In this document: positions 46,998-63,893 of the stretch, piece after piece
Position numbering within the stretch: position 1 is the first letter of the stretch
Layout: each line of letters starts with the position of its first letter
DNA from: Myxococcota bacterium
Lineage (GTDB): Bacteria; Myxococcota_A; UBA9160; UBA4427
Assembly (NCBI GenBank): GCA_965250285.1
Contig: OZ252299.1
Location: forward strand, 384,001-448,000
DNA: 64,000 bases
Direction: 5' to 3'
The notes under the pieces: model-generated
The model's input: only the letters and a program-made list of their open reading frames with translations
What the model was told of the DNA's origin: nothing
Databases searched by the model: none
Made by a program: the position numbers and the translations under genes

Positions 46998-47399
46998 ATG
47001 AAGCGGATGAGGCCGTTTCTGCTGGTGACCGACGTTGGCTTCGTCGCGTACTGGGCGGTTTCTCTGCTGGTGCTCGTGGGACTCGACGTGGTGCCGAAGT
47101 CGTGGCTCTTCAAGGACTACGATGACCCCATCGTGTTCGCGTGGAACTGGTCGTTCTTTCCGCTCGACATGGTGCTGTCGGGCTGCGGCCTGTGGGCGGT
47201 GCGACGGCATGCGCGCGGCGACGAGGGCTGGCGCCCCCTCGCTGCGTTCTCGCTGGCGCTCACGTTCTGCGCCGGCTTCATGGCCATCTCGTTCTGGGTG
47301 ATTCGCTGCGACTTCGATCCGTCGTGGTGGGCGGCCAACCTGTTTCTCGCGATCTGGCCGCTCTTCTTCCTGCCGAAGCTGTGGCGCTCGACCGACTAG
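46998..47399 (+). CDS. YvaD/DUF5360-like membrane protein
   Basis: TDVGFVAYW, AWNWSFFPLD, LTFCAG.MAISFW; alternative GTG start at 46974. Confidence 0.75.
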   Translation: MKRMRPFLLVTDVGFVAYWAVSLLVLVGLDVVPKSWLFKDYDDPIVFAWNWSFFPLDMVLSGCGLWAVRRHARGDEGWRPLAAFSLALTFCAGFMAISFWVIRCDFDPSWWAANLFLAIWPLFFLPKLWRSTD

Positions 47400-48394
47400 A
47401 GCCAATCGGGGGTCGGCAGACCCTTCTCTTTCAGGAACGTCGGATTGAACAGCTTGCTCTGGTAGCGGGTGCCGCTGTCGCAGAGCAACGTCACGATGGT
47501 CTTGCCCGGCCCGAGCTCCTTCGCGAGGCGGATCGCACCCGCGACGTTGAGCGCGGCCGAGCCGCCAATGCACAGGCCCTCGTCCTTCAGAAGGCTGAAG
47601 CAGATCGGCAGCCAGTCGGCGTCGTCGATGCGGTAGGCGATGTCGATCGGCGCGTCTTCGAGGTTCGCCGTGATGCGCCCCTGCCCGATGCCCTCGGTGA
47701 TCGACGTGCCCTCGGCCTTGAGCTCGCCATGCTTGTAGTAGTGGTACAGGGCGGCACCGCCGGGGTCGCTGATCGCGATCTTGATGTCGGCATTGCGCTC
47801 TTTCAGCGCCATGCCGATGCCCGCGAGACTGCCGCCGGTGCCGACGGCGCACGTGAACGCGTCGATCGTGCCGTCGGTTTCGTCCCAGATCTCGGGGCCG
47901 GTCGTGCGGTAGTGACCGTCGCGATTGGCGACGTTGTCGAACTGGTTTGCCCAGATGGCCCCGGATGCCTCGCTCTTCGCGAGATCCTCTGCGAGTCGGC
48001 GCGAGACATGGACGTAGTTCTCGGGGTTCTTGTACGGGACGGCCGGCACCTCGCGCAGGTCTGCGCCGCACAGGCGCAGCATGTCCTTCTTCTCCTGGCT
48101 CTGGGTGTCGGGGATGACGATGACGGTGCGGTAGCCCTTGGCGTTGGCCACCAGCGCGAGGCCGATGCCGGTGTTGCCGGCCGTGCCCTCGACGATCACG
48201 CCGCCCGGCTCGAGCTGGCCCTTGGCTTCGGCGTCTTCGACGATCGCGAGAGCGGCGCGATCCTTGACCGAGCCGCCCGGGTTCAGGAACTCGGCCTTGC
48301 CGAGGATCGTGCAGCCGGTCTCTTCGCTCGCACGCTGGAGCTTGATGAGCGGCGTGTGGCCGATCGTGCCGATGAAGCCGTCGCGAATCTGCAT
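47396..48394 (-). CDS. cysK: Cysteine synthase A
   Basis: PGGSVKDR (PLP Lys), EGTAGNTG, NQFDN, GTGG, EGIG. Confidence 0.93.
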   Translation of the reverse strand: MQIRDGFIGTIGHTPLIKLQRASEETGCTILGKAEFLNPGGSVKDRAALAIVEDAEAKGQLEPGGVIVEGTAGNTGIGLALVANAKGYRTVIVIPDTQSQEKKDMLRLCGADLREVPAVPYKNPENYVHVSRRLAEDLAKSEASGAIWANQFDNVANRDGHYRTTGPEIWDETDGTIDAFTCAVGTGGSLAGIGMALKERNADIKIAISDPGGAALYHYYKHGELKAEGTSITEGIGQGRITANLEDAPIDIAYRIDDADWLPICFSLLKDEGLCIGGSAALNVAGAIRLAKELGPGKTIVTLLCDSGTRYQSKLFNPTFLKEKGLPTPDWL

Positions 48395-48457
48395 GGAGTC
48401 TCCGTATGCGCCCACGGAGGCGCCCGCCGATGTCAGATCATGGATCAGGGCTCGGGA

Positions 48458-48952
48458 TCAGCGTCGCCAGCGACCCTGGAGAGCCGTCTCGCGGCCATCA
48501 CCCGTGGGCTGATAGAAGACGTCGATGTCGGCCATCGCGGTCTTCCAGTCTTCGACCGCCGATTCGCTCGCGATCTCGAAGGCGTCGAAACCCGCCCGGT
48601 GCATGAAGACGAGCTGCTCGAGCGCAACGTCACCCACGGCGCGCAGCTCGCCCTCGAACCCGTAGCGTTCGCGCAGCAAGCGCGCGTGCGAGTACGCACG
48701 GCCGTCGGTGAAGGCGGGGAACTCGAGTGCGATGAGGTCGAAGTGCACGAGGTCGTCGACGATCTCTTCGGGGCCCTGATCCGATGAAAGACACACGCCG
48801 AAACTGCCGCCGCGCTTGCAGAGCTCGACCTTGTGCTCCTTCCACTGGTCGAGGCTCACGAGCAGGCGGTCACCGCCCGGGATGCTCGTTGCCTCGGGGT
48901 CGACCTTCTCCCAGCCGTCTTCGGCGACCTTGCCTGCCTTAACGAGGGGCAT
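48458..48952 (-). CDS. DUF934 protein (sulfite reductase-associated)
   Basis: FPAFTDGRAYS.ARLLRER.GF.GELRAVGDV, YQP. Confidence 0.92.
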   Translation of the reverse strand: MPLVKAGKVAEDGWEKVDPEATSIPGGDRLLVSLDQWKEHKVELCKRGGSFGVCLSSDQGPEEIVDDLVHFDLIALEFPAFTDGRAYSHARLLRERYGFEGELRAVGDVALEQLVFMHRAGFDAFEIASESAVEDWKTAMADIDVFYQPTGDGRETALQGRWRR

Positions 48953-50594
48953 AGAGCTTCTCCTTGAAGGGGTCCATGCCGACCCGTCGGTACGTGTCGA
49001 TGAATCGCTCGCCGTCTTCGCGCAGCTCGACGTACGTGTCGAGCACCGTCTCGATGGCCGGGCCGATGTCGTCGGCCGAGAAGCCGGGGCCCGTGCGCAC
49101 GCCGAGTGACGCGTCTTCGTGAGAGCTTCCGCCCAGCGTGATCTGGTAGAGCTCTTCGCCCTTTCGGTCGACGCCGAGGATGCCGATGTTGCCGACGTGA
49201 TGATGGCCGCAGGCGTTGATGCAGCCCGACATGTTCAGCTCGAGCTCGCCGATCTCTTTCTGGCGCTTGAGGTCGGCGAAGCGCTTCGTGATGTCCTCGG
49301 CGACGGGGATCGAGCGTGCGTTGGCGAGTGCGCAGTAGTCGAGGCCGGGGCAGCAGATGACGTCGCCAATGAGGTTCAGGTTCGCGGCCGCCAGCTCGAG
49401 CTCGACCAGCTTCTGCCACAGCGTGAAGAGCTGATCCTTGCGCACGTCGGTGAGCACGATGTTCTGGCGGTGCGTCACCCGCATCTCGCCGAAGCTGAAC
49501 GCGTCGGCGAGGTCGGCGAGCGCGTCCATCTGATCACTCGAGAGGTCGCCCGGCGCGTGGCCGGGCATCTTGACCGAGATGTTCGCGATCGCGTAGCCGG
49601 GTTGCTTGTGGGCGTGCACATTCTGCTCGACCCAGTCGGCGAAGTCGGCGTTCTGCCCGAGCTGCGCATCGAGATCGGGGCAGGCGTCTTCGAGCGTCTC
49701 GTACTCGGGCGGCGCGAAGTACGCGTCGATGCGGTCGATCTCGTCCTGGGGCACCTCGAGCGCGCCGCCCTTGAGGTTGGCGTACTCCTCGTCGACCAGG
49801 CGTCGGAACTCCTCGGTGCCGGTCTCGTGCACGAGCACCTTGATGCGCGCCTTGTACTTGTTGTCGCGACGGCCAAAGCGGTTGTAGACCCGCAGGATCG
49901 CCTCGAGATACGAGAGCAGCTCACTCGGCGGCAGCTCCTCTCGGATCGTCTTGCCGACGAACGGGGTCCGCCCCAGGCCGCCGCCGACGATCACTTCGAA
50001 GACCGGCTGGTCCTTCGAGTCGCGATCGAGGATGAGCCCGATGTCGTGCACCTTGACCGCAGCGCGGTCGTTCGGCGAGCCGGTGACCGCGATCTTGAAC
50101 TTGCGGGGCAGAAACGAGAACTCGGGGTGGAGCGTCGACCACTGCCGAATCAACTCGCAGTAGACGCGCGGGTCGGCGACCTCGTCGGCGGCGCAGCCCG
50201 CATGCTCATCGGCCGTCGTATTGCGAATGCAGTTGCCGCTCGACTGGATCGCGTGCATCTCGACGCTCGCGAGGTCGCGCAGGATGTCGGGCGTCTCCTC
50301 GAGCTTGATCCAGTTGAACTGCATGTTCTGGCGCGTCGTGAGGTGGCCGTAGCCCTTGTCGTACTTTCGACCGATCTCGGCAAGCATCCGCATCTGCTTC
50401 GAGCTGAGCATGCCGTAGGGCACGTTGATGCGGATCATGTAGGCGTGCAGCTGAAGGTAGAGGCCGTTCATCAGACGCAGCGGTCGAAACTGATCCTCGG
50501 TGAGCTTGCCGGCCAGGCGATGCTCCACCTGTCGTCCGAACTGCTCTGCGCGCTCGGTGACCAGCTTCAGGTCGAACTCGTCGTAGCGGTACAT
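48939..50594 (-). CDS. cysI: Sulfite reductase hemoprotein (ferredoxin-type)
   Basis: MYRYDEFD, TTRQN, LPRKFKI, CPGLDYC...SGCINAC siroheme/4Fe-4S motifs. Confidence 0.93.
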   Translation of the reverse strand: MYRYDEFDLKLVTERAEQFGRQVEHRLAGKLTEDQFRPLRLMNGLYLQLHAYMIRINVPYGMLSSKQMRMLAEIGRKYDKGYGHLTTRQNMQFNWIKLEETPDILRDLASVEMHAIQSSGNCIRNTTADEHAGCAADEVADPRVYCELIRQWSTLHPEFSFLPRKFKIAVTGSPNDRAAVKVHDIGLILDRDSKDQPVFEVIVGGGLGRTPFVGKTIREELPPSELLSYLEAILRVYNRFGRRDNKYKARIKVLVHETGTEEFRRLVDEEYANLKGGALEVPQDEIDRIDAYFAPPEYETLEDACPDLDAQLGQNADFADWVEQNVHAHKQPGYAIANISVKMPGHAPGDLSSDQMDALADLADAFSFGEMRVTHRQNIVLTDVRKDQLFTLWQKLVELELAAANLNLIGDVICCPGLDYCALANARSIPVAEDITKRFADLKRQKEIGELELNMSGCINACGHHHVGNIGILGVDRKGEELYQITLGGSSHEDASLGVRTGPGFSADDIGPAIETVLDTYVELREDGERFIDTYRRVGMDPFKEKLYAPR

Positions 50595-50891
50595 CTATTC
50601 GTTCCCCGCTTGCTTGCCCAGGTCGGGTCGGTTCGTCGGACCAGCGGCGCGAATCACTTCGCGGTACTTCGTCGGGCGCACTCTGTCGCCGTCGACCTCG
50701 ACGTCGATCAACTCGGCGCCGACCACCTGCTGCTTCGCCTCGAGCGCGAGCGCCGTCTCGAGCAGCGCCTCGGCGGCATCGCCGGTCTCTTCGACGCGTG
50801 CGTCGTCGACGCCGCTGGCCCAGCTATCGCCCTCGGCGAGAAAGACGATGCGACCGTCGGTCAGTCGATTGGCGATGACGATCTGCGGCAT
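50595..50891 (-). CDS. DUF2849 protein
   Basis: ANRLTDG.IVFL, RE.IRAAGPT; abuts cysI. Confidence 0.88.
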   Translation of the reverse strand: MPQIVIANRLTDGRIVFLAEGDSWASGVDDARVEETGDAAEALLETALALEAKQQVVGAELIDVEVDGDRVRPTKYREVIRAAGPTNRPDLGKQAGNE

Positions 50892-51317: not shown

Positions 51318-51352
51318 TACACCTGATGTATGCCCGGTATGCATCGAGTGTC
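51318..51352 (+). promoter_or_regulatory. Tandem candidate activator-binding boxes upstream of the acyltransferase promoter
   Basis: TACACCTGATGTA (51318) and TGCATCGAGTGTC (51340), 22 bp apart; match boxes at 54423 and 54444. Confidence 0.55.
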
Positions 51353-51419
51353 GTTCGCGCGAACCGTTCGCTGCGGGTGGGATTGGCGCAAGTCGCTGAA
51401 TTTGCAGGGTTTTCAAGAG

Positions 51420-51435
51420 TGGCATCTTTCCTGCT
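51420..51435 (+). promoter_or_regulatory. Sigma54 (-24/-12) promoter of the acyltransferase
   Basis: TGGCATCTTTCCTGCT (GG-N10-GC); IHF-like CAAGTCGCTGAAT at 51389-51401. Confidence 0.7.
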
Positions 51436-51469
51436 CTAGTCCTCCCCAACCACCGAGGAGGACCACCCG

Positions 51470-52837
51470 ATGCTCGATTCGATTCGCTCCATGTGGCGCC
51501 AGGCCGATGACCTCGCCGCGCAGGCCCCCGACACGCGCAACCGGGCCGTCGACTTTCTGCGGGCGGCGTCGATCGCCGTCGTCGTGATCGGCCACTGGCT
51601 CGTCGCGGCCCCGTTCGTGCGCGGGGGCGAGGTCGTGCCCGGTCACATGCTCGAGCTCGCGCCCTGGACCCAGTGGCTCACGCTGGTCGTTCAGGTGATG
51701 CCGATCTTCTTCCTGGTCGGGGGCTACTCGAATGCCGTCGCCTGGCAGGCGGCGCGTCGCAAGGGCACGGCCTATGGCCCGTGGCTCGGGGCTCGGATCC
51801 AGCGGCTGATCGCGCCGGTGATGCCGGTGCTCGTCGTCTGGATCGGTGTGTCGGCCATCGCCGTCGCGTGCGGTGTGCCGGCCGAGCAGGTCGGGGTCGC
51901 GACCCAGATGGCGCTGGTGCCGACTTGGTTCCTCGCGGTCTACGTCATGGTCGGGGTGTTCGTTCCCGTCACGCTGGCGGCATGGGAGCGGTTCGGGTTC
52001 GCCTCGGTCGCGGCCGGTGTCGCCGCTGCGGCTGCAGTCGACTTCCTCGTCCTCGAGGCCGGGGTGCGCGGCGTTGGCTACGTGAACTACGCCTTCGTCT
52101 GGCTCACCGTGCATCAGCTCGGTCACGCGTGGCAGGCCGGCGCCATGCGCCGCCCGCTCGTCTGGGCCGGGGCCGGTGCGGCCGGTCTCGTCGCGCTGAT
52201 CGGCTTCGGACCATACCCCCTCGCCATGGTCGGCGTGCCCGGTGAAGCGTTCGGCAACACGTCGCCCCCGACGCTCGCGTTGCTCTTTCTCGGGATCACC
52301 TGGACGGGTCTCGTCCTCGCCATCGAGCCCGCGCTGCGACGGATGCTCGCGCGTCGGCGGGTGTGGACGACGACCGTGCTGATCAACGGACTCATCATGA
52401 CGCTGTATCTGTGGCACATGACCGCGATGCTGGCGGCGCTCGGGATCGCCGTGGCCCTGGGCGGGGTGGGCCTGCACGCGATCCCCGACTCGGCCGAGTG
52501 GTGGGCGCTTCGCCCCGTTTGGATGGGCATCTACCTGGTTGCGCTCGTCCCGCTGATGGTCGGGTTCCTGCGCTTCGAACGGCCTCGCCGCGCCACACAC
52601 GTCGCTTCGAAGCGGCGGCTGCTGACGGGCGCGTCGCTCACGGCTGCCGGCCTCGGTGTGCTGTCGGCAAAGGGCATCGTCAGCGGCGCTGGCGTGCACG
52701 TGGGCCCGAGCCTCATGCCGCTGTTGGGCGGCGCGCTCGCGGGCTTCGGCCCCGTGCGGCGCGTGCTCGTGTGGCTGCGACGCCCGGCGCAGAAGACCGA
52801 TGCGACTTCGGCGACGAAGGACGGTGCTTCGAGCTAG
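51470..52837 (+). CDS. Acyltransferase-3 family membrane protein
   Basis: RNRAVDFLRA...VVIGH, QVMPIFFLVGG, WFL.VY, MTLYLWH; RBS GAGGAGGA. Confidence 0.92.
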   Translation: MLDSIRSMWRQADDLAAQAPDTRNRAVDFLRAASIAVVVIGHWLVAAPFVRGGEVVPGHMLELAPWTQWLTLVVQVMPIFFLVGGYSNAVAWQAARRKGTAYGPWLGARIQRLIAPVMPVLVVWIGVSAIAVACGVPAEQVGVATQMALVPTWFLAVYVMVGVFVPVTLAAWERFGFASVAAGVAAAAAVDFLVLEAGVRGVGYVNYAFVWLTVHQLGHAWQAGAMRRPLVWAGAGAAGLVALIGFGPYPLAMVGVPGEAFGNTSPPTLALLFLGITWTGLVLAIEPALRRMLARRRVWTTTVLINGLIMTLYLWHMTAMLAALGIAVALGGVGLHAIPDSAEWWALRPVWMGIYLVALVPLMVGFLRFERPRRATHVASKRRLLTGASLTAAGLGVLSAKGIVSGAGVHVGPSLMPLLGGALAGFGPVRRVLVWLRRPAQKTDATSATKDGASS

Positions 52838-54405
52838 TCGCCCGTCAGCATCTCGAGCAAGGCCCGGTCGACCTTGGCCTTGACCGTGCGGCGGTCGAGG
52901 CCGAGCGACCGGGCCGCTGCCTCGTACGAGCCCTGTGAGGCATAGACCCGCGTGACGTACTCGCGGAGCAGGTCGTCGGCCGAGGCCTGGCCCGAGAGGA
53001 TCGATGCGGCGATCGTGGTGCCGCCTTGCTCGATGTTCGCGCCGGCGAGCGGGCCCCTGGGTTCGTAGCGCCCCTGCACCAGCACGCTGCGCACGCACTG
53101 TTCGAGCTCGCGCACGTTGCCGGGCCAGGTGTAGTCGGCCGGGAGCCCACTGTGGATCCAGCGGACGACTTCGTCGACCAGATCGTCGGCGCCTTCTCCA
53201 GCGACGCGGGCCGAGATCACCCGCACGAGGCTCTCGAGCTCGTCGGGCGAGTCTCTGAATCGATCGCGGAGCGTCGGCATGCGAATCACGTCCGCGCACA
53301 GCCGGTAGTACAGGTCTTCGCGGAAGCGTCCGGCCTCGAGCTCGGTGTCGAGGTCGCGGTTCGTGGCTGCGACGATGCGGCCTTCGAAGCGCCGCTCTTC
53401 GACCTCGCCGATGCGCTGGTACACGCGGCTCTGCAGCACGCGCAGCAGCTTCACCTGAATGGCCGCGTCGAGCTCGCCGATCTCGTCGAGGAAGATCGTG
53501 CCATGGGGGCCCGACGATTCGAGCCAGCCGACGCGGTCGGCCATCGCTCCGGTGAATGCGCCCCGTTTGTGGCCGAAGAGCTCCGACTCGATCAGCGCCG
53601 ACGAGAGCGCCGACAGATTCACGGCGTGGTAGATCTTCGTGTAGTCGGCGACGAAGGCCTGCTTGGTCGTGTCGAAGGGGATGTATCGGCTGAGACCGAT
53701 CGCCCGGGCGACGAGCTCCTTGCCGGTCCCCGACTCACCGAGCACGAGGGTCGGGATGTCGGCCATGCGGTCGTAGAGCCGGCGCCGGTACCGATCGACG
53801 TCGTGGGTGAAGATCGATTGCCAAACCGTGCCGCGCAGCTCGGCCATGGCGAGCGAGCCGCCGTAGATCTCCCAGTACACGTGATTGAACGCGCGCCGAA
53901 TCTGAAACCCCCACGCCAGCGTGTGACCTGGGTCGGGACGGGTGGGCAACGTCACCCCGGGCAGGTCGAAGAAGTGATCGCAGTCGGCGACCAGGCGCGA
54001 AAAGAAAGAGAGCTTGTGCGTCGTCGGCTGACCCGCTTCGGCGCGCTCGACGAGCTTGGTCAGCTCTTCTTCGTAGCGATAGAAGAAGAGGTATCGAACG
54101 AAGCCCTCGTAGAGCTCGAGCTGCGCGGGCGTCGCGCGCGCACCGCTGCGGAGCCGCTGCCGGAGATCTTCAGCGAGCTGCTCGGCCAGCTGACGCAGCG
54201 ATCCGAGGTTCGGGTTGATCCCCTGCAGCTCACCATCGGCGCTCCACACGGCGGCATAGGGCACGAAGTCGTCGCCGAGTGCGCGCGCCTCCTGCGTGGT
54301 GCGGTCGGGCAGGAACGGGTTCGAGGTGGCGAGGCGCGAGAGCGCCTCGAGTACCTCGTGCTCTCGGTCGCTGACGAAGGGCGGGGCGGTGTCGCGCTTG
54401 GCCAT
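52834..54405 (-). CDS. Sigma54-interacting activator with uncharacterised N-terminal domain
   Basis: GESGTGKE, ESELFGHKRGAFTGA, FLDEIGE, WPGNVREL, HTH; N-terminal ~230 aa not recognisable as REC/GAF/PAS; RBS GAGGAG. Confidence 0.9.
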   Translation of the reverse strand: MAKRDTAPPFVSDREHEVLEALSRLATSNPFLPDRTTQEARALGDDFVPYAAVWSADGELQGINPNLGSLRQLAEQLAEDLRQRLRSGARATPAQLELYEGFVRYLFFYRYEEELTKLVERAEAGQPTTHKLSFFSRLVADCDHFFDLPGVTLPTRPDPGHTLAWGFQIRRAFNHVYWEIYGGSLAMAELRGTVWQSIFTHDVDRYRRRLYDRMADIPTLVLGESGTGKELVARAIGLSRYIPFDTTKQAFVADYTKIYHAVNLSALSSALIESELFGHKRGAFTGAMADRVGWLESSGPHGTIFLDEIGELDAAIQVKLLRVLQSRVYQRIGEVEERRFEGRIVAATNRDLDTELEAGRFREDLYYRLCADVIRMPTLRDRFRDSPDELESLVRVISARVAGEGADDLVDEVVRWIHSGLPADYTWPGNVRELEQCVRSVLVQGRYEPRGPLAGANIEQGGTTIAASILSGQASADDLLREYVTRVYASQGSYEAAARSLGLDRRTVKAKVDRALLEMLTGD

Positions 54406-54422
54406 CGAGCACTCCTCGGTCG

Positions 54423-54456
54423 GACATCCAGTGTCGGGTTCTGTTCGTCCAATGTC
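54423..54456 (+). promoter_or_regulatory. Tandem candidate activator-binding boxes between the activator and the VIT gene
   Basis: GACATCCAGTGTC (54423) and TTCGTCCAATGTC (54444), 21 bp apart. Confidence 0.55.
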
Positions 54457-54547
54457 TGCTCGACCTGAGCTTCGCGGTTCTTCGAGCACACGCAAATCAC
54501 TCCATAGGTTGCTGCCGTGGTTGCGCTTTTCGGGTTTCCCGAGAGTT

Positions 54548-54563
54548 GGGCACGGGTCGTGCT
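54548..54563 (+). promoter_or_regulatory. Sigma54 (-24/-12) promoter of the VIT-VWA/rhombosortase operon
   Basis: GGGCACGGGTCGTGCT (GG-N10-GC), followed by CTAG as in the 51420 promoter. Confidence 0.7.
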
Positions 54564-54608
54564 CTAGAGCCCCTCGAGCCGGGATGAACCCGGCAGAAGG
54601 AGTTCAGC

Positions 54609-56645
54609 ATGACCACCCTGCGCATCGGACTCATCGGGCTCGCGGCGAGTGTCGCGGCCTGGTTCGGGGGCGCCGCTCAGGCGGCCGGCACCCTGACGCC
54701 CAGCGGTTCGCCCCACGCACCGATCGAGATTCGGGACCACCACGTCGAGGTCGTGATCCAGGACGGCTTCGCGCGAACGGCGGTCACCCAGAGCTTCTAC
54801 AACCCGAACGCCGTCGATCTCGAGGGCGTGTACGCGTTTCCGCTGCCGGCCGAGGCGAGCCTCGCCGAGATCACCATCTACGCCGGCGAGCGCGTGCTCG
54901 AGGGTGAGGTGCTGTCCGATGACGAGGCCGATCGCATCTATGGCGAGGAGCGCGACGCCGGCAACGATGCGGGGCTCGGTCGGAAGGAGGGCATCCAGCG
55001 TTTCGAGTTCTACGTGACGCCGATTCGGGCGCAGGACGAGACGCGGATGCGCTTCGTGTACTACGAGCCGCTCGAGATCGACACCGGCGTCGGCCGCTAC
55101 CTGTATCCGCTCGAAGAGGGCGGCACCGACGAGCGTGCGCGGTCGTTCTGGATGACGAACGAGCAGGTCACCCGCGACTTCTCGATCGACGTCGCGCTGC
55201 GCACGAGCGTGCCGATCGCCGAGCTGCGCACGCCGGGCTACGAGGGCGCCGCGCGCATCGAAGCGAAGGGGGAGGGCGAGCACCGGGTTCGCATCGAATC
55301 CCAGGCCGGCGCGCTCGACCGCGACTTCGTGCTCTACTACCGCCTCGCCGATGGTCTGCCGGGTCGCGTCGAGTTGTTGCCCTACAAGCCCGACGCCGAT
55401 GAGCCCGGGCACTTCATGCTCGTGGTGACCCCGGGCGTCGACCTGCAGCCGCTGCGAGACGGGTCGGACTACGTCTTCGTGCTCGACAACTCGGGCAGCA
55501 TGGCGGGCAAGCTCTCGACCTTGACGGCGGGTGTGCGCCAGGCGATCGGCGAGCTCGGGCCGAACGACCGGTTTCGCGTGATCGTGTTCTCGAACGACGC
55601 CCGGGAAGTCGTGGGCTGGACGCCGGCCACGCCGGACCGAGTCGCAGCTGCGCTCGCCCGGGTCGCGTCGATTCGAACCGAGGGCGGCACCAATGTCTAT
55701 TCGGGCCTGAAGCTCGCGCTCGACGACCTCGAGGCGGATCGTGTGACCAGTCTCGTGCTCGTGACCGATGGCGTCACAAACACGGGCGTCGTCGATCCCA
55801 AGGCCTTCCATGCGCTGATGCAGAAGGCCGACGTGCGCGTCTTCGGCTTCTTGATGGGCAACTCGGCCAACTGGCCGCTGATGCGCGTGATCTGTGAGAC
55901 GTCGGGTGGCTACTACACGGGCGTCTCGAATGCAGACGACGTCCTGGGCCAGGTGCTGCTCGCGAAGAGCAAGGTCACGCACGAGGCCCTGCACGACGTC
56001 GAGCTGCACTTCGACGGGGTGCGCGTGACCGACATGACGGGCAAGGCGTACCGCAAGGTCCATCGCGGGGAGCAGCTCGTGCTCTTCGGTCGGTACGAAG
56101 ATGGCGGCGAGCTCGATCTGGCGCTCGACCTGCGGATCTCGGGTGAGGACCAGCGTCTCGAGACCCGGTTCGCGATGCCCGATATGAGCACGGCGTATCC
56201 CGAGGTCGAGCGGCTCTTTGCGCTCGCGCATGTGGACGAGATCGAGTGGCGAACCCAGGCCGGTCTGCTCGACGGCGACGAGGCGGCCACATCGATCGAG
56301 TTCTACGGCACCGAGTATCAGATCGTGACGGACGAGACGTCGATGGTGGTCTTGACCGACGAAGCCTTCGCACGCCACGGGATCGAGCGCCGCAACCAGC
56401 AGCGCACTGCGGTCGAGCACGCCGTGCAGGCGCAGCGCGCCCAGGCCCCGGTGCAGCCCACGCGTGTCGATCGGCACCAGCCGATGTTCGACGCGCCGGC
56501 CCCGCGTCTCGGGTCGGGCTTCTTCGGCCCTGATCACGCGGCGGGCATCGTCGCGCTCTGGTCACTGATCCTGCGCCGCTGGCGGCGTGAAGACGAGGGC
56601 GAAAGCGCGTCCAGGGGCGTGCGCCAAGACAAGGAGGAGGACTGA
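54609..56645 (+). CDS. Exported VIT + VWA domain protein with GlyGly-CTERM-like anchor
   Basis: Signal peptide; VIT (ARTAVTQSFYNP, EGVYAFPLP); MIDAS DNSGSM, GGTN, VTDG; C-terminal GSG-hydrophobic-RRWRR. Confidence 0.9.
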   Translation: MTTLRIGLIGLAASVAAWFGGAAQAAGTLTPSGSPHAPIEIRDHHVEVVIQDGFARTAVTQSFYNPNAVDLEGVYAFPLPAEASLAEITIYAGERVLEGEVLSDDEADRIYGEERDAGNDAGLGRKEGIQRFEFYVTPIRAQDETRMRFVYYEPLEIDTGVGRYLYPLEEGGTDERARSFWMTNEQVTRDFSIDVALRTSVPIAELRTPGYEGAARIEAKGEGEHRVRIESQAGALDRDFVLYYRLADGLPGRVELLPYKPDADEPGHFMLVVTPGVDLQPLRDGSDYVFVLDNSGSMAGKLSTLTAGVRQAIGELGPNDRFRVIVFSNDAREVVGWTPATPDRVAAALARVASIRTEGGTNVYSGLKLALDDLEADRVTSLVLVTDGVTNTGVVDPKAFHALMQKADVRVFGFLMGNSANWPLMRVICETSGGYYTGVSNADDVLGQVLLAKSKVTHEALHDVELHFDGVRVTDMTGKAYRKVHRGEQLVLFGRYEDGGELDLALDLRISGEDQRLETRFAMPDMSTAYPEVERLFALAHVDEIEWRTQAGLLDGDEAATSIEFYGTEYQIVTDETSMVVLTDEAFARHGIERRNQQRTAVEHAVQAQRAQAPVQPTRVDRHQPMFDAPAPRLGSGFFGPDHAAGIVALWSLILRRWRREDEGESASRGVRQDKEED

Positions 56646-57316
56646 TGGGGGCGATCGCGCGGCTTCGGTGGTTCGACGCGCGATCGCGCCGGGAGGGGGT
56701 GACCCCCTCCCGGCCAACCCCGGTCTTCACCCTTGGCCTCTGTCTCGCCGCGATCGCGGCCTACGCACTCGGGCAGGGTTCGGCGTGGGAGTGGTCGCGA
56801 GAGGCGCTCGGGCGAGGCGAGTGGCATCGATTGATGTCGGCGCACCTCGCGCACTGGTCCCTCGAACACCTCGCGTGGGACGTCGGTGCCCTGGCCGTGC
56901 TCGGCGGATGGCTCGAGGGGCGGGGCCGCGCGCGCTACGTGGCGCTCGTTCTCATGGCGGCGCTGGCGATCTCGCTCGGCCTCTCATGGCTCGACCCCTC
57001 GCTGGCCGCGTATCGGGGGCTCTCCGGGGTCGATGCGGCGCTCTTCGTCTCGGTGTGTGGTGCGCTCGCACACGACGCCGTCTCGCGACGCGATCACGGC
57101 GCAGCGGTCGTCGCCGGGGTGCTGCTCCTCGGTTTCGTCGCCAAGATTGCGTTCGAAGCGCACAGCGGTGCTTCGCTCTTCGTCGCCCGCGACCCCGGAC
57201 CGCCCGGGGTCGTGGTCGCTCCGATCGCACACGCCATCGGCGCGGGCGTCGCGCTGGGCTTCGGCGTCCTGTCGGTCGGCGTGCGTCGCGGCTTCGGCGG
57301 TCGGCTGCGGTTCTGA
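56645..57316 (+). CDS. rrtA: Rhombosortase (rhomboid S54 family)
   Basis: GEWHRLMSAHLAHWS..HLAWD, catalytic YRGLSG, AHAIG; TGATG coupling to the VIT gene. Confidence 0.85.
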   Translation: MGAIARLRWFDARSRREGVTPSRPTPVFTLGLCLAAIAAYALGQGSAWEWSREALGRGEWHRLMSAHLAHWSLEHLAWDVGALAVLGGWLEGRGRARYVALVLMAALAISLGLSWLDPSLAAYRGLSGVDAALFVSVCGALAHDAVSRRDHGAAVVAGVLLLGFVAKIAFEAHSGASLFVARDPGPPGVVVAPIAHAIGAGVALGFGVLSVGVRRGFGGRLRF

Positions 57317-57595: not shown

Positions 57596-59842
57596 ATGCA
57601 CCAACGCCGGAGTCGCCGTCGAATTCATGAGCAGCCGGGTCGGGGTGGGCCGGGGTGGATCGGCATCCTCCTCGTCCTCGCGCTCGGCTTCGGCGTGGTC
57701 GCGTGTGGGGAGCAGGGGGAGGCGGGCCCACCGGGCCCCGAAGGCCCCGAAGGTCCACCCGGGCCACCGGGCCCCCCTGGCGATATCGTCGACACCGGGA
57801 CGTCCGTCGAAGCGTGTCTCGGCTGCCATGGCCCGGACGGCGTCTCCCCCGTTCACGACGTCGACGATCTCGATGACGCGCACTACGTCGACCTCGATCC
57901 CGACGGGCCTGCGACCGGCTCCGGGTATCGCCAGCTCGCGATCGAGGTGCTCAGTGTCGACGTGACGGGAAACGACGTCGAGTTCCGGTTTCGCGTCGAG
58001 GACGAAACGGGAGGCGCCGTCGACGACGTCTTCGCGGCCGACGGCCGGTTCGGTCTGGCGCGGCTGCTCGACCCGGCCGGCATCGGTGACCCGACCACGT
58101 GGCAGGCGTTGATCACCTCGGAGCGCTTCACCACGAGCGGCGCCGCGTTTACGCCCGAAGGCGGCGGCGAGTACACCTATCGGTCGGTCTTCGACCCCCA
58201 GAGCCCGGCGGTGCCTGTCGCGACGGGCGACACGTTGCGACTCGCCATTCAGCTCAGCGCATCGGATCTGCCGGCCGGCAACGGAATCTGCGACTTCGAT
58301 GCGAACCTCGCCAGCGCGAACGACTGCGTCAGCGCCGTCTCGCGCACGCGCGACATCGTGCCGACGAGTCAGTGCAACAGCTGCCACGGCGTCACCAGCG
58401 ACTCGAAGCTCGCGTTCCACGGTGGAGGGCGAACGGAGGTCGAGTACTGCGTCGTGTGTCACAACCCCGATCTCGGCGACGCCGACATGACCGTGATGAC
58501 GCACAAGATTCATGCGGGCTCGACGCTCACGAACGGCTATCGGAGCTGGTCGCACGTCAACTACACCCGCGACCTCGCCGACTGCACGACGTGCCACGGC
58601 GGCGGCGGCGCCGACGAGACGAACTGGTACGACGTCCCGACCATGGAGGCATGCGGGGCCTGCCACGACGACGTCGACTTCTCCGACGGCACGAACCATG
58701 GATCGGGCGGCCAGCAGGTCGACAACAGTCTGTGCGCGAACTGCCACCCGCCGCTGATCAACGACACGGGCTCGAAGCTGCCGGTTCGACTCGTTCATCG
58801 GGGGGAGGAGCGCCGGACACGCGCCGCCGAGTTCCGGGGCGGGTCGAACGGCTACGCGATCGAGGATCTCACCTGGGACGACGCGTCCGACGAGCTCACG
58901 GTGCTGTTCTCGGTCACCCAGCTCGGCACACGACTCGACCTCGAATCGGATCCGGCCTTCCCCGCCGCCGGCGGCTCGGGCCGCGTCAACCTGCGCGTGG
59001 CCTGGTCGACCGACGAGTACACCAACGAAGGGAGCGGGAGCAGTCCCGCGCCCGCGCAGCCGCCTGCGTACTCGGGCACCGACTTCAGCGAGGTGACGAA
59101 CATCGGCGGTGAGGTCTACGAGCGGGTGATCCCCGTGCCGGGCGGGGCCTTCGACACGGTGAGCGTCACGATGGATGGCTATCCCGCCACGGATCTCGAT
59201 GACGATGGTCAGTTCGACGATGCGCTGCCGGTCCAAACGGCCTTCGCAGATGTGAACGTCGAGCTGCGCGGCACCGACACGCCGCGCCGCAGCTCGATCG
59301 ACATGGCGAAGTGCAATCTGTGTCACGACGCGGCCGGCGCCGGCCTCGCCTTTCATGGCAACAATCGAACGAGCGAGACCATCTCGTGCGTGTCGTGTCA
59401 CAACGCCGATGCGACCGACATCGCGCAGCGACCGAGCGATCCGTCGACGACACCCGACGGAAAGCGCGAAGAAGCCGTCGACTTCAAGCGGATGATCCAC
59501 CAGATCCATGCGGGAGAGGCGCTCGAGGCGGGGATCGTCGTCTACGGGTTCGGGGGGCGTCCCCACGACTACTCGGACGTCGGTTTCATCGGAAACCTCT
59601 CGAACTGCGAGACGTGTCACGTCGACGCGACGCCGCCCGAGAGTGGCTACGGCGCCGCTGCGGCCTGGGCCGCCGAGGCGACGACGCTCGACACCGGGGC
59701 CGAGGTCACCGACCCCAGTGACGACCTCAACGTCTCGCCGGTCGCGTCAGTCTGCTCGTCCTGTCATGACGACGCGGTCGCGCGGGATCACATGCTGCTC
59801 CACGGCGCCTCGTTCATCGCGCTCGACGAAGACATCCGCTGA
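57596..59842 (+). CDS. mtrC: OmcA/MtrC-family decaheme lipoprotein cytochrome c
   Basis: Lipobox VVAC; 10 CxxCH; LAFHGGGR, HKIH, FKRMIHQIH; first gene of a C-A-B cluster. Confidence 0.88.
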   Translation: MHQRRSRRRIHEQPGRGGPGWIGILLVLALGFGVVACGEQGEAGPPGPEGPEGPPGPPGPPGDIVDTGTSVEACLGCHGPDGVSPVHDVDDLDDAHYVDLDPDGPATGSGYRQLAIEVLSVDVTGNDVEFRFRVEDETGGAVDDVFAADGRFGLARLLDPAGIGDPTTWQALITSERFTTSGAAFTPEGGGEYTYRSVFDPQSPAVPVATGDTLRLAIQLSASDLPAGNGICDFDANLASANDCVSAVSRTRDIVPTSQCNSCHGVTSDSKLAFHGGGRTEVEYCVVCHNPDLGDADMTVMTHKIHAGSTLTNGYRSWSHVNYTRDLADCTTCHGGGGADETNWYDVPTMEACGACHDDVDFSDGTNHGSGGQQVDNSLCANCHPPLINDTGSKLPVRLVHRGEERRTRAAEFRGGSNGYAIEDLTWDDASDELTVLFSVTQLGTRLDLESDPAFPAAGGSGRVNLRVAWSTDEYTNEGSGSSPAPAQPPAYSGTDFSEVTNIGGEVYERVIPVPGGAFDTVSVTMDGYPATDLDDDGQFDDALPVQTAFADVNVELRGTDTPRRSSIDMAKCNLCHDAAGAGLAFHGNNRTSETISCVSCHNADATDIAQRPSDPSTTPDGKREEAVDFKRMIHQIHAGEALEAGIVVYGFGGRPHDYSDVGFIGNLSNCETCHVDATPPESGYGAAAAWAAEATTLDTGAEVTDPSDDLNVSPVASVCSSCHDDAVARDHMLLHGASFIALDEDIR
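57707..57781 (+). repeat. Collagen-like (Gly-X-Y)8 linker after the lipidated Cys
   Basis: GEQGEAGPPGPEGPEGPPGPPGPPG. Confidence 0.85.
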
Positions 59843-59847
59843 GGGAG

Positions 59848-60786
59848 ATGTCGATGCGAAGCGGCCCCGGTCGCCGTCGCCCGCGCGAGAACGCAGAGCC
59901 CGACGGTGGGCGTCGGCGCCGCGTGCTGCGCGGGTGCTCGGCGTTCGGCGTCCTGGTGTTCGTCTGGGCCTGTGCGAGCGTCTGGCAGCCGCCGGTTCTC
60001 GAACCGCGGCACCGAGTCGAACCCATCGCGGGTGCGGGCTCGACGCTCGGTTCGGCGACCTGCCTCGAGTGTCACGACTCCTTCGATGCGCACTTCGTCG
60101 AGTCGCCGTTTCACGGCGACTGCGAATCGTGTCACGGCCCGGGCGAGCTCCACGTCCACACGGTGCAGGCCGATGCGATCCGTTTCCCCTCGAGCGCCGA
60201 TTGCATCATCTGCCACGGGAGCGCGCAGCGAACCCTGGTGCACTGGGATGCCTCGCCTCATGCAGAAGTGGGCGTCCTCTGCAGCGACTGCCATGCGTCG
60301 CATGTACGGACGCCCGACCTGCTCCGTGCACCGAGTCAGCTCGACACGACGTTGCTTCGCCATGCCTCGGCTGAGACGAAGCTCTGCGCGACCTGCCATC
60401 CGGGCGTCGTCGGGCAGCTCGGGCTTCCGTCTCATCATCCCGTCAAGGAGGGCATGCTCGACTGCACCTCGTGTCACTCTCCCCATGCGCGCGACGGGGC
60501 GCTGGCGGGGGGGCGCAACCAGGTCTGCGCCGAGTGTCACGAGGAGGTCTTCGGCCCCTGGGTCTTCGAGCACCCGCCCGTCAACGAAGACTGCGGTTAC
60601 TGCCACGTGCCGCACGGGGCGCCGAATGAGTCCCTGCTCGAAGTCAGTCAGCCGGGCGTCTGCTTGTCGTGCCACACGCTCGCCGAGGCGGGGGCAGTGC
60701 ATCAGCCCTGGGCGCTCTCGACCGCCTGCACCGACTGCCACAGTGCCGTACACGGGTCGTACACCGATCCGCACTTGAGGCGATGA
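59848..60786 (+). CDS. mtrA: DmsE/MtrA-family decaheme cytochrome c
   Basis: 10 CxxCH; PSHHPV.EG, GPWVFEHPPV, terminal CTDCHSAVHGS. Confidence 0.92.
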   Translation: MSMRSGPGRRRPRENAEPDGGRRRRVLRGCSAFGVLVFVWACASVWQPPVLEPRHRVEPIAGAGSTLGSATCLECHDSFDAHFVESPFHGDCESCHGPGELHVHTVQADAIRFPSSADCIICHGSAQRTLVHWDASPHAEVGVLCSDCHASHVRTPDLLRAPSQLDTTLLRHASAETKLCATCHPGVVGQLGLPSHHPVKEGMLDCTSCHSPHARDGALAGGRNQVCAECHEEVFGPWVFEHPPVNEDCGYCHVPHGAPNESLLEVSQPGVCLSCHTLAEAGAVHQPWALSTACTDCHSAVHGSYTDPHLRR

Positions 60787-63068
60787 CGGTGCGTGGATGG
60801 CCGACGGGTAAGGGGATCATCGCCACCGTGGTCTTGTACGGGCTCGGCGCGGCCGGATCCGCAGCGGCGCAGTCGGAGCGGACCGACTCTGCAGATGAGA
60901 CCCGTTCGATTCGCGACGCTCCGGCGTCCGCCGCGCATGGCGTGCCTTCGGCCACCGCCGGCGCGCGCGAACCCGTCGAGCTCGTCTGGTCGGCGACGGT
61001 GATGGCACAGGGCAAGGTGATTGCGCCGCGCGAAGCCACGGATGACGTCGGCGGTTTCTTCGATCAGTACGAATACACCCCCAACAAGGGCAGCGCGTTT
61101 CCGGTCGAGCTCGGCGTGCGCGATGCAGCGTTCGACGCGTACGGTGGATCGGGCGATCCGATCTTCCAACTGCGACTGTCGAGCCCGACGTCGAATCTCG
61201 GCGTGTCGGGTCGCGACATCGACCAGCCATTCTTCAACCAGAGAGTCGAGACGACCACGCGCCTGGGCGAGCCCGGGCCGAACGCGCCCGGGCCCTGGCG
61301 CATCGACGTCGACTATGCGCGAATGCGGACCGAGCAGCTGCGCGTGTTCCCGAACACCGAAGGCGGCTCGTTGATCTACGATGATCTCACCGATCCCGAC
61401 GCTCGGTTCTTTCGCGATCGCACCGGGTTCGACGGCACCGTCTCCCGTCGCTCACTGTCGTTGGCCGACCCCGATCGCCCCGTCGCCTACGGCTTCGATG
61501 TGCGAGGGGACTTCCAGGCCCGTCGTGGTCTCGAGCAGCGGCGCGTGTTCCGAGATCCACAGAACGACTGGCTCGGATTGCCGCGCACCCTCGACCGCAA
61601 CGCGAGCGGCGCCGGGGCGGGTGTGCTCGTCGGTGCGGCTCGGGATGGCCGCTGGCTGGTAACCGTCGACTACGACCACGACATGCTGCGGTGGAAGTCG
61701 CCGCAGCTGTACGAGTCGGGGCTCGGCGTGCCGCCGCCGGTGGGCGACCGCCCCCTCGGCTTCGTGCCTGACAGCAACCGCGACACGGCCCGCGTATCGA
61801 TCTCGGGCCGAGCCGGATCTACGCTCAGCTGGTCCACGCAGTATCAGGTCAGCGTGCTCCAACAGGTGGGCGAGGGAACGCCCGAGCAGCGGGCAGCGGG
61901 GCTCGACGACAACACGGTGCTGAGCCAGGCGGCCGCGGCCCACGTCAGCTGGCGCATGGCCGACCAGTGGACCCTGCGCGCCGGTCTCGACTTCGACGCG
62001 CGAGACAATCGGATCGACCGCGACACGCCGCTCTTCAACCCGGTCGGCGGCGTGCAGGTCGACCCCTTCGTCGAAGACTGGTGGAGACTCGCGCTCGAGA
62101 GCGAGGTCGAGTGGCGGTTTTTTCGCCGCAACACCCTCGCCGTCGGCGCGCGGTTCGACGACATCGAGCGCAGCATCGACTTCGCCGAGCCGGGCGGCGT
62201 GCGCGTGCTACCCGAGAACGCCTTGATCGGCGATACGACGCGCATGATCGATGTCTATGCCAAGACGCGCATGCGCCTCTTCCGAACGCTCCGGCTCGAC
62301 GGCAGGCTCGGTTACCGAGCCGCGCCGCAGACGGGCTACATCACCGATCTCGATGACTACGTGCACGGTCAGCTGCGCCTTCGCCAGACGTTCACCACGC
62401 GCCGACCCCTGGCACTGACGGCCTTCGCGCGGGGCGACTGGGGGCAGAACGACCAGTTCGAGATGGTGGAAGGGCTCGGACCCGATCCGACCGGTACGAG
62501 CGTCGGGCGCACCTTCGAGCGCTGGACGGTGCAGTGGGGGGTCGGGCTCGAAGCCGCTCCCGTCGACCGGCTCTCGGTCTTCGCCTCCTTCGTTCGCCAG
62601 TGCTTGAATCAGCAGAGCGGCGTCGTGACGTCGACCCTGCAGCGCTACTTCCAGGAGACGGCTGCGCTCGACTTCACCGACCTCGGCGTCGACGACGCGC
62701 GCCAGAAGATGGCCAGCTTCGTCACGGGTCTGAACTACGACTTCAGCCGCCACGTCGACGCGGGGGTCGCCTACACGTACACGAGGTCGAAGTCGAACTA
62801 CGAGGGCGAGGCGTCGCCCGCCTTCGACGTGCTGCGGGCCGAACGCCGCGTCGAGAATCGGACTCATGTGGTCGACTTTCAGACCGGCTTCGAGCCGCGC
62901 GTAGGCTTGCGGCTGCTCGCCGGCTACCGGCTGCAGTACAACCGGGACGACGTCGATGCGCCCGAGAGCATCGCGAGCGCTTTGCCCCCCATCGATCGTT
63001 CGACGTACCAGCACACCTTCACTGTCGGTGTGAGGTTCGACGGGCGTGTCCTGCGAGGCGGTGACTAG
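60783..63068 (+). CDS. mtrB: MtrB/PioB-like outer-membrane beta-barrel
   Basis: ATGA-coupled to mtrA; signal peptide; 761 aa rich in alternating beta-strand patterns; call relies on context. Confidence 0.75.
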   Translation: MTVRGWPTGKGIIATVVLYGLGAAGSAAAQSERTDSADETRSIRDAPASAAHGVPSATAGAREPVELVWSATVMAQGKVIAPREATDDVGGFFDQYEYTPNKGSAFPVELGVRDAAFDAYGGSGDPIFQLRLSSPTSNLGVSGRDIDQPFFNQRVETTTRLGEPGPNAPGPWRIDVDYARMRTEQLRVFPNTEGGSLIYDDLTDPDARFFRDRTGFDGTVSRRSLSLADPDRPVAYGFDVRGDFQARRGLEQRRVFRDPQNDWLGLPRTLDRNASGAGAGVLVGAARDGRWLVTVDYDHDMLRWKSPQLYESGLGVPPPVGDRPLGFVPDSNRDTARVSISGRAGSTLSWSTQYQVSVLQQVGEGTPEQRAAGLDDNTVLSQAAAAHVSWRMADQWTLRAGLDFDARDNRIDRDTPLFNPVGGVQVDPFVEDWWRLALESEVEWRFFRRNTLAVGARFDDIERSIDFAEPGGVRVLPENALIGDTTRMIDVYAKTRMRLFRTLRLDGRLGYRAAPQTGYITDLDDYVHGQLRLRQTFTTRRPLALTAFARGDWGQNDQFEMVEGLGPDPTGTSVGRTFERWTVQWGVGLEAAPVDRLSVFASFVRQCLNQQSGVVTSTLQRYFQETAALDFTDLGVDDARQKMASFVTGLNYDFSRHVDAGVAYTYTRSKSNYEGEASPAFDVLRAERRVENRTHVVDFQTGFEPRVGLRLLAGYRLQYNRDDVDAPESIASALPPIDRSTYQHTFTVGVRFDGRVLRGGD

Positions 63069-63080
63069 GGCGTCGACCTC

Positions 63081-63893
63081 TCAGCGTGCATCGAGGGCGG
63101 GATCGCCCGCCGCCAGCGGCGGGATCGGGTGAGCCAGGCCCTTGTGGCAACGAACGCACTCGATCTCGCGCTCAGTCGCCGTGGCGTGGAACCGCCGGGC
63201 CTTCTCGCTCTGGGCCGGCATGCCGCCCGGCGAGAGGTCGTGGCAATCGCTGCATCGGCTCGAGTCGAGGGGGCCGTGCGGGTTGTGGCACGTGCTGCAG
63301 GTGAAGTCGTTCTGGTCGGTCGGCGTCGCCGTGACCGGGTGGGTGAACGTCGACGGATCCGCACCGCCCATCAGGTTCGTGTGGCAGCTCTCGTTGCACG
63401 TCGCGGTCGAAGCCGCGTGCGCGGGCACGATCGCGTCGGGCTGATGCATCGAGTGACAGGTGCTGCAGAGCACGTCGTCCAGGCCGTGCGGGCTCGTCTT
63501 CCAGTCGGCCTGCGTCCCGCCGTCATGGCAGTCGAGGCACATTGCGTTTTGGACGGCGGCAGCCGCCCCGGAGCCCTTCCCGAAGTGCACGTTCGAGACC
63601 TGCATCGGGAACTGCATGTGCTTTGCGCTCGGGCCGTGACAGCTCTGGCATTGTCGCTGGGCGGCGGGCGAGCGCGGATCGTCGAAGTCGGCGTGCTTGG
63701 TCTCGGCGATGCCGAGGATGCCCGAGCTGGCGTGACAGTCGATGCATGCGTTGTAGTCGGCGTCGGTGTAGTCGGTCTCGCTGAGGACCAGCTCGTCGGC
63801 CCCAGCGAATGAGGACGCCAGCTGGAGGGTCACGCCGAGGGCCAGCCAGCGCGTGAGCGCACCCGATCGTCGCGTGCCGCGGGCCTTCTTCAT
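63081..63893 (-). CDS. Exported multiheme cytochrome c (7 CxxCH + 1 CxxxCH), DmsE-like N-terminal half
   Basis: Signal peptide; CIDCH, CQSCHGP, CLDCH, CSTCH, CNESCH, CSTCHNPHG, CSDCH, CVRCHKGLAH; RBS AGGAGG. Confidence 0.88.
   Translation of the reverse strand: MKKARGTRRSGALTRWLALGVTLQLASSFAGADELVLSETDYTDADYNACIDCHASSGILGIAETKHADFDDPRSPAAQRQCQSCHGPSAKHMQFPMQVSNVHFGKGSGAAAAVQNAMCLDCHDGGTQADWKTSPHGLDDVLCSTCHSMHQPDAIVPAHAASTATCNESCHTNLMGGADPSTFTHPVTATPTDQNDFTCSTCHNPHGPLDSSRCSDCHDLSPGGMPAQSEKARRFHATATEREIECVRCHKGLAHPIPPLAAGDPALDAR

Follow-up and report, generated by a model that had tools for sequence, protein, structure and literature searches.

The window, by which we mean the whole 64,000-nucleotide stretch of Myxococcota DNA analyzed here by sequence, profile, and structure-model comparison, contains four adjacent genes predicted to form a regulator with two target operons. 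The gene for a sigma-54 enhancer-binding protein (hereafter the activator) lies between an acyltransferase-3 (AT3) gene and a two-gene operon for a VIT-VWA protein and a rhombosortase, and both flanking units are preceded by a sigma-54 promoter and putative operator boxes (Table 1). A preliminary description of this DNA had named the same four genes, and Pfam and NCBIfam profile matches confirmed them. The AT3 protein scored 61.1 against a gathering score of 31 for PF01757, and its nine hydrophobic peaks are those of a multi-pass protein. A GAGGAG ribosome site could be read in the sequence upstream of the activator start at 54405. No plasmid match was found.

Table 1. Predicted features of the activator locus; positions are those of the window, lengths are in amino acids (aa) or base pairs (bp), and bits refer to the family matrix.
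Feature	Position	Strand	Details
Operator box A1	51318-51330	+	TACACCTGATGTA; 15.3 bits; 102 bp upstream of AT3 promoter
Operator box A2	51340-51352	+	TGCATCGAGTGTC; 12.7 bits; 22 bp after A1
IHF-like site	51389-51400	+	CAAGTCGCTGAA; between A boxes and AT3 promoter; relaxed IHF-like pattern
Sigma-54 -24/-12 promoter of AT3 gene	51420-51435	+	TGGCATCTTTCCTGCT
AT3 (acyltransferase-3) gene	51470-52837	+	455 aa; stand-alone membrane protein; PF01757, E 1.2e-16
Activator gene (sigma-54 enhancer-binding protein)	52834-54405	-	523 aa; N-terminal domain, AAA+ domain, C-terminal helix-turn-helix
Operator box B1	54423-54435	+	GACATCCAGTGTC; 13.3 bits; 125 bp upstream of VIT promoter
Partner half-site B2	54444-54456	+	TTCGTCCAATGTC; right half only; 1.9 bits; 21 bp after B1
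Sigma-54 -24/-12 promoter of VIT-rhombosortase operon	54548-54563	+	GGGCACGGGTCGTGCT
VIT-VWA gene	54609-56645	+	678 aa; predicted secreted; PF08487, PF00092
Degenerate GlyGly-CTERM-like tail of VIT-VWA protein	56511-56588	+	GSG, weak hydrophobic stretch, RRWRR
Rhombosortase gene	56645-57316	+	223 aa; TIGR03902 above cut-off

By every feature checked, the predicted protein is a sigma-54 enhancer-binding protein, for which ATP-dependent activation is predicted. PF00158 matched its AAA+ domain at 162 bits, Walker A and B motifs and the GAFTGA loop are in place, and the loop or a close variant occurs in all 47 aligned family members (GAFTGA in 28, GSFTGA in 16, and GAYTGA in 3). Pfam HTH_8 gave no match to the activator; a C-terminal helix-turn-helix is predicted from helices at residues 476-511, where the residues DRRT are conserved across the family, which fits one operator common to all members. 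The N-terminal domain of about 210 residues is predicted to be all-helical, with nine helices and a pLDDT of 92 in the structure model. It had been called a novel sensor, and we likewise found it in no recognized family: residues 1-214 had no Pfam match, no Pfam family was common to 71 members, nothing in the PDB sequences was better than E 0.42, Foldseek returned no match at E ≤ 0.001, the best Z in a VIA comparison was 4.9, and an Atlas search gave an unnamed cluster only, a lack of fold matches that is no proof of a new fold. Foldseek with the whole protein found AAA+ domains only, and no NCBIfam equivalog model reached its cut-off.

The top 120 homologue matches were all full-length, at 54-86% identity to the activator, and a profile of the N-terminal domain gathered 1,324 representatives at 50% identity. 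Members were present in 45 of 301 genomes in a phylum sample and in 25 of 121 in a class sample, and homologue records carry the labels Myxococcota, Acidobacteriota, Planctomycetota, Verrucomicrobiota, and Nitrospirota. Proteins named as Lujinxingia are among the distant members. The literature searched, whose coverage stopped short of most subscription journals, the web app of PMC11237479, and the supplements of PMC12316311, PMC3162934, and PMC3237569, yielded no account of the family; term searches of PMC12316311 and PMC12419801 returned nothing relevant. The family is widespread, crosses phyla, and is apparently unnamed.

The two GG-N10-GC promoters noted earlier were confirmed, and the genome encodes RpoN (TIGR02395, 454 bits). 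Four boxes of the form (G/T)ACA-N5-TGT(C/A) had also been proposed; A1 and B1 fit this form, whereas A2 has one mismatch and B2 is a half-site only. Boxes lie upstream of AT3 at the place equivalent to A1 in the closest relative (L001) and in L143, and L001 also has a B2-type half-site. The motif CATC.AGTGTCG occurs three times in the genome. We scanned this genome with a family matrix built from 59 promoters and 61 boxes, with the window and L001 excluded from training. Among 1,436 candidates in 6.25 Mb (megabases), the window sites ranked first (40.4) and second (32.0), the third candidate reached 23.6, and the best sites in four displaced-window controls scored 22.6, 20.9, 28.5, and 25.9. 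Judging from these ranks, a single activator for both flanking operons, as first supposed, is the most likely arrangement, and we regard it as very probable that the activator binds the boxes and controls both promoters.

The boxes could instead be read by another enhancer-binding protein, with the neighboring activator a bystander; the AAA+ domain of the activator has 14 further matches in this genome, and a similar ACA-N5-TGT spacing, GACAAAAATTGTC, is found in other genomes. We consider this very improbable, since the box tracks the activator across phyla, with a distance of no more than 61 bp to the activator start at 56 of the 59 divergent sites, and since the only two strong sites of this genome flank the activator gene. 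The claim that the regulon is self-contained held in part: no third site in this genome scores near these two, but in relatives there are boxed targets unlinked to the activator. Representatives of the YiaAB, PlsC-like, PspA-clade, CDP-alcohol transferase, and DAGK families gave no tblastn match in this genome, and the LplT-Aas representative matched through its AMP-binding part only. The regulon here would thus consist of the two flanking operons, as first proposed.

To describe the family operator, we collected 134 loci, the window included, and called genes with a simple script, which overlooked the activator gene in 8 of them. The consensus is a TACAT-N3-ATGTA palindrome that is usually paired, and in most spacers of the 81 loci with a divergent gene we found a sigma-54 promoter and a box, the box mostly 76-125 bp upstream. 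A partner half-site at 11, 21, or 22 bp accompanies 63 of 71 family sites, compared with 4.5 at random offsets, and 30 of 69 family spacers have, between the box and the promoter, an IHF-like pattern (the IHF consensus, relaxed after examples were seen), compared with a shuffle mean of 1.6. The closeness of the box to the activator start across the family suggests autorepression; in the window, 17 bp separate B1 from the start codon of the activator gene. When training sites are included, 58 of the 123 loci with enough upstream DNA have a divergent scoring site.

Outside the divergent training regions, 12 sites were found, compared with 19 summed over four displaced controls, and 10 of the 12 precede a gene for AT3 (3), YiaAB (2), PspA, LplT-Aas, CDP-alcohol transferase, DAGK, or a heme-oxygenase-like (HO-like) protein. 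A strict pattern gave nine matches in 23 activator-positive genomes, against one in a reversed control: six adjoin the activator, and three are unlinked to it, one each in front of yiaA, a CDP-alcohol transferase gene, and a pspA gene accompanied by its membrane partner. In five genomes of other phyla, the strict pattern found the activator-adjacent site only, plus a different-looking box in one, and a loose box-promoter pattern in 301 genomes returned mostly noise, with many control matches. In a Nitrospirales genome (L202/L203) and several more, sigma-54-like sites have a different palindrome, GACAAAAATTGTCAC, in front of them, which is probably the site of another activator.

The genes within 7 kilobases (kb) of the activator were counted over all 134 loci and over 80 activator clusters at 70% identity. 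LplT/Aas-like genes were the commonest neighbors (26 loci, 14 of the 80 clusters, a few of which may be AMP-binding matches only), followed by genes for VIT-VWA (15 loci, 11 clusters), YiaAB (11 and 9), rhomboid (10 and 8), and divergent PspA clade proteins (10 and 7), PlsC-like acyltransferases (9 and 6), CDP-alcohol transferases or desaturases (7 and 6), DAGK (4 and 3), and AT3 (4 and 3), and PAP2 genes were present as well. At least one of nine recurring families occurs in 49 of the 80 clusters, and none of ten neighbor-family representatives was matched at 18 control loci of other enhancer-binding proteins. In a quick tree, built without a formal test, the activators linked to VIT, PspA, and LplT are scattered, and the AT3-linked ones fall in the window's branch.

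These counts did not bear out the proposal that AT3, VIT, and rhombosortase genes form a conserved unit, since AT3 is near the activator in only 4 loci and VIT in 15. We rejected that trio as the core of the system, as LplT/Aas-like, YiaAB, PspA, and PlsC-like genes are equally or more common. The AT3 linkage is clade-limited. Of 20 AT3 matches, 19 were analyzed and 18 had enough upstream DNA; a box-promoter site precedes the window copy and all five others that adjoin an activator (one in pieces), whereas the 12 remaining copies lack a sigma-54-like site, one of them being the third gene of a VIT-rhombosortase-AT3 operon. The six VIT orthologues among the 121 class genomes all fall within the 25 activator-positive genomes, each behind a box and a sigma-54 site; the site scores were 21.6-44.6, with one site in training, one at only 21.6, and two unlinked to the activator. 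In one genome (G098), AT3, VIT/rhombosortase, and pspA genes lie on three contigs, all under the family box.

The boxed lipid-remodeling, PspA, and YiaAB genes of relatives support the envelope or stress theme of the preliminary description more strongly than the window itself did. Lysolipid re-acylation, envelope proteins, and PspA with a partner that weakly matches DUF2157 are mixed among the targets, and on this comparative evidence membrane or envelope damage is fairly likely to be the theme of the regulon. LplT-Aas protects the envelope against phospholipase attack, according to PMC11416262; no such gene was found at the window locus. The same wiring could instead serve a nutritional signal, in which the activator would sense fatty acids or lysolipids from prey or detritus and induce their uptake and incorporation, with the surface proteins as accessories. 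The prevalence of LplT/Aas-like genes would suit this, as would the PlsC-like, DAGK, CDP-alcohol transferase, desaturase, and PAP2 genes, but PspA with its membrane partner, YiaAB, and VIT/rhombosortase are not salvage genes, and no beta-oxidation operon recurred among the first divergent genes scanned. We therefore consider a nutritional role unlikely.

Several side observations concern the targets seen in relatives. The divergent PspA clade (L145, L148, L155-L164, and L188) is paired with a membrane protein of 380-470 aa and resembles a LiaH/LiaI-like pair. The membrane partner has a weak match only, to DUF2157, a domain renamed LiaI-LiaF-TM in PMC11237479. At L034, L037, L045, and L148, the box precedes a pair of co-transcribed genes whose products, of about 410 and 710 aa, matched nothing in Pfam, NCBIfam, or PADLOC. 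Boxed operons of heme-oxygenase-like, enolase-family, and GH3 genes occur at L066, L068, L070, L082, and L084, where the GH3 protein shows a sub-threshold resemblance to OlsH, a lyso-ornithine lipid synthetase. At L033:419-5431, genes for a VWA protein and another PspA are divergent from an OmpR-type two-component pair that adjoins the activator locus.

We favor, as somewhat more probable than its competitors together, the reading that the activator is a one-component, PspF-like regulator of membrane damage and that the window would hold a two-operon version of its regulon. Like PspF, it is a sigma-54 activator with boxes beside its own start, its family members are often divergent from a pspA-like gene (8 of the 134 loci), and the AAA+ domains are 35% identical. 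It departs from PspF in three respects: PspF lacks an N-terminal domain (PMC3162934), whereas the activator has a folded one; the PspF model TIGR02974 gave 165.7, short of its cut-off of 443.55; and PspF is divergent from pspA, whereas the window has no such gene beside the activator. The E. coli pspF-pspA spacer has no family box (best 1.6 bits on the family matrix), no pspB or pspC was seen among the neighbors scanned, and E. coli PspA is about 20% identical to the family-linked PspA clade. The PspF variants named in PMC11237479 (ACT/PAS and Toastrack) also differ from the activator.

A closer analogy with PspF would be that a PspA-like protein inhibits the activator until the membrane is stressed, with the N-terminal domain serving docking or structure rather than a ligand. 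The loci where the activator is divergent from a pspA-like gene speak for this, as does an insertion of 12 residues in the AAA+ domain relative to PspF, immediately ahead of the loop aligned with W56, the residue of PspF that contacts PspA. On the other hand, tblastn found no match to the PspA clade in this genome, only 10 of the 134 loci have a member of it near the activator, and the genome's own pspA follows a different, receiver-domain activator, so such inhibition seems quite unlikely. A complex prediction for the G098 activator with its boxed PspA scored 0.00, gave no answer, and was counted neither way. The gene in front of this pspA (G000:C1:5388868-5390531), on the same strand, encodes a receiver-domain sigma-54 activator rather than a PspF, and no sigma-54 site lies just upstream of pspA. 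The window's activator was rejected as the PspF of this genome.

The activator would also share a one-component damage-response design with RtcR, and its best PADLOC match was to an RtcR or RtcR-PspF-like CARF-AAA-HTH protein (235 bits, residues 215-514). That match is confined to the AAA+ and helix-turn-helix parts, and the RtcR model NF038308 gave 198 against a cut-off of 650, within residues 217-441. The N-terminal CARF domain of RtcR has a Rossmann-like fold, whereas the activator's domain is modelled as all-helical and had no clear match in fold searches.

The VIT-VWA protein has a signal-peptide-like N-terminus and a DxSxS (MIDAS) motif, both read from the sequence, and its residues 40-582 are homologous to ITIH4 (E 3e-18). 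This homology and the MIDAS motif liken it to the ITIH4 and ITIH1 heavy chains (PMC7793589), from which it differs in being bacterial and predicted to be membrane-anchored, and a role as a protease trap is drawn from analogy only. The rhombosortase scored 94.6 bits on TIGR03902 (cut-off 84), carries GLSG and a downstream His as read from the sequence, and tblastn found no second one in the genome. The VIT-VWA/rhombosortase pair has already been published as a dedicated system: in Haft and Varghese (2011; PMC3237569), one rhombosortase directly follows a vault/ITI-VWA protein, as in the window, and this protein family carries GlyGly-CTERM, PEP-CTERM, or LPXTG tails. The word "sigma" is absent from the main text of that article, which thus does not describe sigma-54 control of the pair. 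Our protein does not qualify as a marine proteobacterial sortase target (TIGR03788), scoring 186.8 against 551.65 and having a rhombosortase as its neighbor.

No NCBIfam model matched the C-terminal tail of the window's VIT-VWA protein, whose best 17-residue hydropathy was 1.29. Orthologue tails have a Gly run, a hydrophobic stretch, and basic residues, and three of five match the GlyGly-type TIGR03867, one of them above cut-off. GlyGly-CTERM status here is thus suggested by the orthologues, and since the window tail is a degenerate version of theirs, anchoring can only be inferred. In the closest relative, the VIT-VWA frame (L001:4795-6822) stops early, at about 580 residues; the record is labelled Spirochaetaceae, yet its activator is 86% identical to the window's.

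Several results weigh against a membrane-damage regulon. None of the nine families was found in 31 of the 80 clusters, many of whose contigs are short, and 65 of 123 loci lack a divergent site at the chosen cut-off. A relaxed pattern gave 13 matches in 42 genomes, against 5 in controls, and no new target; of its nine unlinked matches, eight precede frames that match no neighbor family and one has no frame. Some boxed targets are not obviously concerned with membrane repair (the HO-like/enolase/GH3 operons, radical SAM, and unknown proteins). The two local operons alone do not establish a repair role, as the repair-family representatives, apart from AMP-binding matches to LplT-Aas, are unmatched here, and the degenerate tail adds to these doubts. 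An alternative is that the activator governs surface display, adhesion, or a lifestyle switch. This would suit the AT3 proteins, which modify surface polymers, the MIDAS motif of the VIT-VWA protein, and the shuffling of targets across the activator tree. Sigma-54 regulons in general lean to the cell exterior, according to PMC3162934, and the membrane genes might reflect this bias rather than one damage signal. We find that explanation rather improbable, since the same handful of families turns up on separate branches and behind unlinked boxes and is not found near the 18 other enhancer-binding proteins.

If the activator is indeed a membrane-damage regulator, the helical N-terminal domain would sense the signal directly, as suggested by the lack of a partner gene common to the loci. 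Our leading guess at the signal, a tentative one, is a product of lipid breakdown, for instance a lysophospholipid or a fatty acid. Bound to paired TACAT-N3-ATGTA-type boxes, with IHF looping the DNA between boxes and promoter, the activator would switch on both of its neighbors, the AT3 gene and the VIT-VWA/rhombosortase operon, and the boxes beside its own start would allow autorepression. AT3 would then acylate an envelope polymer. Cleaved and anchored by the rhombosortase, the VIT-VWA protein might bind its partners in a metal-dependent way or trap proteases, as ITIH proteins do.

Taken further, the family could represent a third route of membrane-damage sensing beside Psp and Lia, in which the new helical domain of a cross-phylum, one-component sigma-54 activator directly binds a lipid breakdown product, and the activator induces re-acylation of lysolipids together with patching by PspA/ESCRT-III and an anchored protease trap of the ITIH type; this we regard as possible but doubtful. 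If true, it would give the bacterial VIT-VWA sorting-enzyme targets and YiaAB proteins their first physiological context. The question of what Psp-type responses sense would also be touched by a soluble domain able to report membrane damage in the absence of PspB/PspC. The work defines a regulator family with its operator and regulon in phyla with few mapped regulons. It places VIT-VWA/rhombosortase cassettes, YiaAB, a divergent PspA clade, and phospholipid-remodeling enzymes under one predicted switch, which makes their function testable, and the short operator lends itself to a simple reporter test.

Elsewhere in the window, genes for an OmcA/MtrC decaheme protein, a DmsE/MtrA-like decaheme protein, and an MtrB/PioB-like porin lie at 57596-63893, with a NapC-like multiheme cytochrome gene on the opposite strand; this porin-cytochrome cluster has no family box. 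On the other side of the locus, genes for a DUF2849 protein, a nitrite/sulfite reductase, a DUF934 protein, and a cysteine synthase (47396-50891, minus strand) likely form a sulfur assimilation cluster.

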